Positions 27,769-28,454 of a DNA stretch of 64,000 nt are shown here, one piece after another. Within the stretch, counting starts at the first letter, position 1. Every line of letters begins with the position of its first letter. The stretch lies in assembly GCF_013122565.1 (NCBI RefSeq), contig NZ_CP053258.1; one strand, 5' to 3'. The position numbers and the translations under genes were made by a program. The notes under the pieces were generated by a model. That model did no database searches. It saw only the letters and a program-made list of their open reading frames with translations, and had not been told where the DNA came from. Origin of the DNA: Escherichia coli (lineage in GTDB: Bacteria; Pseudomonadota; Gammaproteobacteria; Enterobacterales; Enterobacteriaceae).

Positions 27769-27784
27769 GATTGGCAGCTACCTG

Positions 27785-27875
27785 CCAGATAAGGCGTAAA
27801 CGCCTTATCTGGCCTACGTTCAGCACGTTACCCCCAGGCCGGATAAGACGCGGCAAGCGTCGCATCCGGCAATGT
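27785..27875. repeat. REP pair (BIME)
   Basis: gcctgccagataaggcgtaaacgccttatctggcctac ... ggccggataagacgcggcaagcgtcgcatccggca. Confidence 0.75.
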
Positions 27876-27939
27876 CTGCCCAGTTCTGGAATCGCGCTCC
27901 ATAAAACAAAAAATCCCCGTCACCATCCTCTACATTCTC

Positions 27940-28041
27940 TTGTTTAGCGTTGTTCAACGTTTATGCTACATACGAGAAGGTTTGACGCATAAAGAATACG
28001 ATTTCTTTACCGCTGTTCATCGTACTAAGGGGAAAAAATGA
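27940..28041 (+). pseudogene. higB: Remnant of higB toxin: C-terminal ~30 codons only, no start codon
   Basis: Frame ending TGA at 28039–28041 (overlapping the higA ATG) translates ...CYIREGLTHKEYDFFTAVHRTKGKK*, matching the recalled HigB C-terminus; upstream the frame has no ATG and runs into REP sequence. Confidence 0.45.
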
Positions 28042-28454
28042 TTACGATTGCCGACATCTTGCAAGCAGGAGAAAAGCTAACTGCTGTGGCACCTTTTCTG
28101 GCGGGTATTCAGAACGAGGAACAATACACCCAGGCGCTGGAACTGGTAGATCATCTGCTGCTCAACGATCCTGAAAACCCCTTGCTGGATCTGGTGTGTG
28201 CCAAAATAACCGCGTGGGAGGAATCAGCGCCTGAATTCGCAGAATTTAATGCGATGGTTGAAGCCATGCCTGGCGGTATAGCCGTGATTCGTACCCTTAT
28301 GGATCAATATGGTTTAACCCTTTCCGATCTGCCGGAAATTGGCAGTAAATCTATGGTGTCACGCGTTTCGAGCGGGAAGAGGAAATTAACGCTGGAACAC
28401 GCTAAAAAATTGGCAACGCGATTCGGCATTTCTCCCGCCTTGTTTATTGATTAA
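28038..28454 (+). CDS. higA: HigA antitoxin (XRE-family HTH), 138 aa
   Basis: 138-aa ORF MITIADILQAGEKLTAVAPFLAGIQNEEQYTQALELV... with C-terminal HTH; recognised sequence. Confidence 0.85.
   Translation: MITIADILQAGEKLTAVAPFLAGIQNEEQYTQALELVDHLLLNDPENPLLDLVCAKITAWEESAPEFAEFNAMVEAMPGGIAVIRTLMDQYGLTLSDLPEIGSKSMVSRVSSGKRKLTLEHAKKLATRFGISPALFID

Follow-up and report, generated by a model that had tools for sequence, protein, structure and literature searches.

The type II toxin-antitoxin module higBA of Escherichia coli K-12 (ygjN-ygjM; structures including 5IFG and 6KML) lies on the chromosome between rlmG and fadH. For this pair, it has been demonstrated that HigB is toxic and that HigA neutralises it (PMC2814082), and a single promoter, repressed by HigA, has been mapped upstream of higB (Christensen-Dalsgaard et al., 2010; PMC2814082). 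Across strains, the fadH-rlmG interval holds complete higBA in K-12 and HS and orphan higA in CFT073 and NRG857c (Bustamante et al., 2020; PMC7232551). This 2020 AIEC paper was the only literature found on orphan higA beside rlmG.

The locus described here, found in a window of DNA (the whole 64-kb stretch that was analysed), is in the same place and the same state as the orphan higA of CFT073 and NRG857c and the pseudogene annotated by PGAP, with higA alone beside a fragment of higB. It differs from the orphan copies of those two strains in being a slightly different mosaic haplotype (A3T, A74V, Q75E, L111S). A comparable process has reportedly been described by Mine et al. in Genetics in 2009 for the decay of chromosomal ccdO157 in E. 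coli, a species-wide polymorphism in which the toxin is said to be inactivated first while the antitoxin tends to stay functional. The ccdO157 module belongs to the CcdAB family of gyrase poisons, a different family from HigBA, and its decay reportedly proceeds mostly through point mutations, as opposed to the one shared, promoter-removing deletion seen in higBA. This decay would be the closest described analogue of the window locus.

It is very probable that the locus represents a widespread allele of E. coli higBA (ygjNM), here called delta-325, in which HigB has been lost through one old deletion that was not mediated by REP elements, while the higA ORF survives intact, keeps a ribosome-binding site of its own and, if expressed, is probably read through from rlmG. 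The earlier note had described a higB toxin reduced to a remnant beside an intact higA, and this is confirmed by alignment with K-12 MG1655, to which the locus is collinear with a sole gap of 325 bp. In common with K-12, the locus retains its place between rlmG and fadH, the final 25 codons of HigB, the ATGA overlap and the Shine-Dalgarno sequence of higA. The missing 325 bp take in codons 1-79 of higB and the 87 bp ahead of it; with them went the operon promoter, the two palindromic HigA operators, the higB ribosome-binding site and most of the toxin fold, leaving the window with neither toxin nor autoregulation. In K-12, the deleted segment contains a near-consensus sigma-70 promoter (TTGCCA-16-TATCAT, 10/12 matches, with an extended TG) and two palindromic operator copies, one of which is a perfect 12+12 palindrome, and the window locus holds no such single upstream promoter with palindromic HigA operators. 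Because the upstream promoter and operators have been deleted along with higB codons 1-79, HigB can no longer be produced. The removal of the promoter and both operators was absent from the earlier note, as was the finding that the allele is very common and already annotated. The features of the locus are listed in Table 1.

Table 1. Features of the rlmG-fadH interval in the window (positions are those of the window unless stated otherwise).
Feature	Position	Strand	Description and basis
rlmG (23S rRNA m2G1835 methyltransferase)	26632-27768	+	378-aa ORF; annotated rlmG in all matching E. coli records
REP-type palindrome pair	27782-27875		Hairpins at ~27784-27813 and ~27838-27870; Rfam, RNA fold, K-12 alignment
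Mechanical 33-aa ORF, in-frame TTG start	27940-28041	+	ORF list; not considered a gene
K-12-conserved spacer	27876-27963	+	Ends at left deletion breakpoint; alignments
325-bp deletion junction	27964/27965		Positions 1866-2190 of K-12 (L002) missing; alignment
higB remnant, pseudogene	27964-28041	+	Codons 80-104 plus TGA stop; BLASTP, Pfam, PGAP
higA Shine-Dalgarno AAGGGG	28027-28032	+	Inside higB remnant; read from sequence
higA, antitoxin and HTH repressor	28038-28454	+	138 aa, intact; PDB 5IFG chain B match, Pfam HTH_3
REP-like GC-rich hairpin	28461-28485		Between convergent higA and fadH; sequence and alignment
fadH	28499-30517	-	672-aa ORF; annotated fadH in matching records; convergent with higA

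The remaining higB frame, which ends at 28041, matches residues 80-104 of K-12 HigB only (23/25 identical, BLASTP E=1e-16; tblastn E=3.5e-12). The expectation of a C-terminal remnant alone thus stood, with 25 homologous codons by BLASTP and tblastn in place of the approximately 30 first proposed. The remnant has no promoter, no ribosome-binding site and, as the earlier note had also observed, no native start. The in-frame TTG at 27940 only opens the 33-aa ORF, whose first 8 codons are former intergenic DNA and not derived from HigB, and no purine-rich stretch that could serve as a Shine-Dalgarno sequence lies ahead of it. When the 33-aa ORF was compared with the Pfam HigB_toxin model (PF09907), the match covered model positions 57-72 of 74 and was non-significant (E=0.036). 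The locus therefore holds no full-length HigB toxin gene (~104 aa, PF09907, RelE fold), and no other HigB-like sequence was found by tblastn within the 64-kb window. In NCBIfam, no family was found for HigA, the remnant or K-12 HigB; evidently PGAP names HigA and HigB proteins by rules other than NCBIfam. Three substitutions distinguish the remnant from intact higB at 27975-27990 (CGT>CGA, GTT>GGT, ATG>TTG), all of which are also present in strains OkiPb01695 and Combat11I9, and 29 genomes match the window at 99% identity or more over the junction 60-mer that carries them.

The frequency of the allele was determined in 5,426 complete E. coli genomes. higA with its flanks is present in 4,359 of these and the 325-bp segment in 2,848 (2,823 of them near-complete), while the junction 60-mer occurs as one contiguous match in 1,345, and in ~1,060 genomes higBA is absent and rlmG is followed directly by fadH. 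The figure of 1,345 is a lower bound, since at least one haplotype, found in 91 genomes, has the same junction with flanks too divergent for megablast seeding; subtraction gives an upper figure of ~1,510, so that delta-325 accounts for 25-28% of complete E. coli genomes (~1,345-1,510). The junction 18-mer, ACGTTTATGCTACATACG, is identical in 18/18 deletion-allele sequences, the window included, and the same junction is found in the UPEC strains F11 and CI5 and 15 further sampled genomes. This identity indicates a single origin and excludes an assembly artefact, and the allele is old, as it spans deeply diverged haplotypes. In 17 RefSeq-annotated genome records, the 78-nt remnant carries the PGAP label ‘type II toxin-antitoxin system toxin HigB; incomplete; missing N-terminus’. 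The delta-325 allele is therefore already known, being both annotated in RefSeq and published.

The antitoxin gene is intact. A 138-residue HigA with its stop/start overlap preserved had been reported previously, and the reading of the sequence agrees: the TGA of the higB remnant (28039-28041) overlaps the higA ATG in the ATGA at 28038-28041, keeping the toxin-first order, and the higA Shine-Dalgarno sequence shows no variation in any aligned allele. HigA is 97% identical to that of K-12 over all 138 residues, the differences being the four substitutions given above. It matches the solved HigA structure over its full length (5IFG_B, E=3e-84) and has the C-terminal HTH of this antitoxin family (Pfam HTH_3, residues 84-135, E=6.7e-6). 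At the nucleotide level, the window gene combines two deletion-allele haplotypes in a mosaic. Nucleotides 1-45 and the substitutions in the remnant (CGAGAAGGTTTG) match the OkiPb01695/Combat11I9 deletion haplotype, while nucleotides 46-417 are identical to the second, which is that of the 91 genomes (e.g., strain 2015C-3905). The HigA variant of these 91 genomes (L031, L032 1326-1742) has the substitutions I4L, A5S, D6N, K13Q, A74V, Q75E and L111S, three of which are also in the window, and both members examined are human stool isolates. Relative to K-12, this haplotype shows 7 nonsynonymous vs. 7 synonymous changes, which hints at some relaxed constraint on HigA. No record of the exact window HigA or FadH protein was found in a large protein collection.

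In the wider sample, the higA ORF is free of frameshifts and stops in 18/18 sampled deletion alleles. Among 17 deletion-allele genomes, 19 synonymous and 12 nonsynonymous segregating sites give a pN/pS of 0.20 (binomial P=9e-6 vs. neutrality), and nine full-allele genomes give 0.12 (13 synonymous vs. 5 nonsynonymous), with no difference between the classes (Fisher p=0.54) in what is a small sample of 17 and 9 genomes, which includes two chosen on account of a variant. These values are consistent with continued constraint on orphan HigA and are not decisive. Many higA polymorphisms are common to deletion and full alleles, which implies recombination between the two classes, and part of the apparent constraint may have been imported in this way from genomes that still need HigA. 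With pN/pS at ~0.2, HigA is probably still constrained, and thus it either has some use or is refreshed by recombination with full-length alleles.

How higA might be expressed was judged from its surroundings. higA adjoins rlmG downstream, after a 269-bp spacer (27769-28037) that begins behind the rlmG stop at 27768. Neither a sigma-70-like site nor an intrinsic terminator on the plus strand was predicted in 27600-28600, and no HigA operator motif was found anywhere in the 64-kb window. The K-12 counterpart of the conserved spacer sits, by alignment, immediately upstream of the higBA promoter. Two promoter candidates were rejected, as both a junction-spanning TTGTTT-16-TATGCT noted by eye and a TTGACG hexamer in the remnant fail a consensus promoter scan. 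The hexamer arises from one of the remnant substitutions, has no matching -10 element after it and is probably just pseudogene drift. Given that neither promoter nor terminator is predicted near higA, any expression of the gene is probably due to read-through from rlmG. Such transcription would have to cross two REP hairpins, neither of which is followed by a U-tract, and would be expected only at a low level; the mRNA would also be unregulated, since the HigA operators were deleted and their motif is absent from the rest of the window.

Two accounts of the fate of orphan higA deserve to be weighed. One is that the gene lies silent and is heading for loss, with no promoter, protein or selection, its intactness owed to its short length and to recombination. 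This is possible, though we are inclined to doubt it. The deleted promoter and operators and the lack of a promoter-like site agree with such a course, and ~1,060 genomes have in fact dropped higBA entirely; yet higA is a full ORF in every one of the 18 sampled deletion alleles, even though the allele is old enough to span deeply diverged haplotypes, and nothing resembling a terminator separates it from rlmG. The polymorphism data cut both ways. The 7 amino-acid and 7 synonymous changes of the 91-genome haplotype and the many polymorphisms that also occur in full alleles fit a gene no longer in use, whereas a pN/pS far below 1, statistically the same as in toxin-bearing genomes, does not. The other account is that selection has kept orphan HigA in approximately one quarter of E. 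coli, where it would act on its own after read-through from rlmG, either giving immunity against plasmid or phage HigB (anti-addiction) or repressing other targets to which it has been recruited. We regard this as rather unlikely. If it were true, the variant with 7 substitutions in 91 genomes could be adapting to a new partner. As to anti-addiction modules, Saavedra De Bast et al. are said to have reported in 2008 that a toxin from a mobile element can be countered by a homologous antitoxin encoded on the chromosome, and by analogy the use of orphan HigA may be to neutralise incoming toxins of the HigB type, a role that is purely hypothetical.

Of the two breakpoints of the delta-325 deletion, the left one lies ~90 bp downstream of the REP pair and the right one inside higB, and they have 1 nt of microhomology, the T at 27964 being assignable to either side. 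The deletion is regarded as illegitimate and not REP-mediated because of this single-nucleotide microhomology, the distance to the left breakpoint and the presence of the same intact REP pair in K-12. The 87 bp upstream of higB and codons 1-79 were lost together in one ancient event. The earlier note had proposed a loss of the toxin that was possibly REP-associated, and only the first part of this stands, as a 325-bp deletion relative to K-12 and two outgroups. A REP-mediated deletion could be argued from the REP palindromes in the same intergenic region and from a different allele, devoid of higBA, that is bounded by a REP-like 15-nt direct repeat. For delta-325 such a deletion is nonetheless highly improbable, as the breakpoints fall neither within nor between REP copies and both REPs are intact, with an identical layout and no gap in the alignment to K-12 and other strains.

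The REP pair itself is typical, consisting of paired imperfect GC-rich palindromes of ~35 nt and of the GCCGGATG...CATCCGGC type in an intergenic position. The predicted RNA folds into two stable hairpins (-56.6 kcal/mol, z = -4.7), and the Rfam family naRNA4, which is REP-derived, matches the pair at 30-35 bits, below the gathering score of 59.5 bits. The spacer between rlmG and higA had been thought short and largely REP; it is indeed short, and the hairpins make up about one third of it, the remainder being the K-12-conserved spacer and the higB remnant. In the allele that lacks higBA (L003 1641-1810, L025; equivalent to window 27858-27872 and 28470-28484), the junction lies in a 15-nt imperfect direct repeat, GCGT[C/T]GCATCCGGC. 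Copies of this repeat are found in the REP upstream of higB and in the hairpin after higA, so placed that they flank the cassette, and both are present in the window. This suggests that loss of the whole higBA cassette occurs by REP-mediated excision. The REP-associated allele is thus the complete-absence allele and not the delta-325 of the window. Elsewhere in the window, matches at the Rfam gathering level comprise naRNA4 (REP325-type) at 30700-30781 (+), directly past fadH, and the ES036 sRNA and one tRNA at 5831-5873 (-) and 46354-46426 (-), all of which is ordinary for this chromosomal region.

The remaining alternatives can be set aside briefly. That the truncation stems from faulty assembly or sequencing, or that translation from an unusual start codon such as the in-frame TTG at 27940 yields a complete HigB, is next to inconceivable, given that the same junction appears in more than 1,300 independently assembled complete genomes (1,345 by the count above), that the 33-aa ORF contains just 25 of the 104 residues of HigB and that its non-significant Pfam match is confined to the C-terminal tip of the model. 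It is just as hard to credit that the short form is ancestral and that K-12 gained 325 bp, as what remains reads in frame as the C-terminal end of a RelE-fold toxin and its stop still overlaps the higA start codon, and full-length higB occupies the same locus in Escherichia whittamii and Escherichia sp. E1V33. These two outgroups, located by an exact 26-mer scan with one genome per species, indicate that the long form is ancestral and the short form derived.

The delta-325 locus is accordingly a textbook case of the toxin-first decay of a chromosomal toxin-antitoxin module. Losing the toxin first and keeping the antitoxin is the sole viable order for such a pair, because loss of the toxin is safe whereas prior loss of the antitoxin would be lethal. 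Support for this order is provided by an independent truncation in strain MEW (L024 850-1060), where the 3′ part of higB has been deleted between short A-rich microhomologies, 36 codons are kept and higA is intact; the two operator copies of MEW have collapsed into one. A partial match to the 325-bp segment is seen in ~25 genomes. The higBA locus therefore exists in three main co-existing states, namely full, toxin-deleted and absent. Inventories of toxin-antitoxin systems should list delta-325 strains as lacking HigB, and statements on higBA that derive from K-12, such as those on stress induction and persistence, are inapplicable to about half of E. coli (~1/4 with delta-325 and ~1/5 without the locus). 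Beyond correct annotation the importance is slight, although the locus could help to test whether selection maintains orphan antitoxins.

The surroundings of the locus show some variation of their own. Over 20 kb (window 20000-40000), the best DNA identity to any of the 5,426 complete E. coli genomes is 98.4%. rlmG differs from that of K-12 at 18 synonymous sites vs. 1 nonsynonymous site, and with differences that are almost all synonymous, the window looks like a natural, poorly sampled lineage. The RlmG protein is very common and adjoins all three main states of the locus and, once, unrelated genes. In this last genome, GCA_013171325.1 (CP053045.1; L029 3638-6137), an identical RlmG is found and higBA and fadH are replaced by a 262-aa ORF without a Pfam match and a 763-aa sulfatase/DUF7024 gene downstream of rlmG. 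The 3′ kilobase of fadH (28499-29500) is 94-97% identical to sampled E. coli alleles, as compared with 96-98.7% for the adjoining rlmG, which suggests that divergent haplotypes or a recombination hot spot flank the toxin-antitoxin site.
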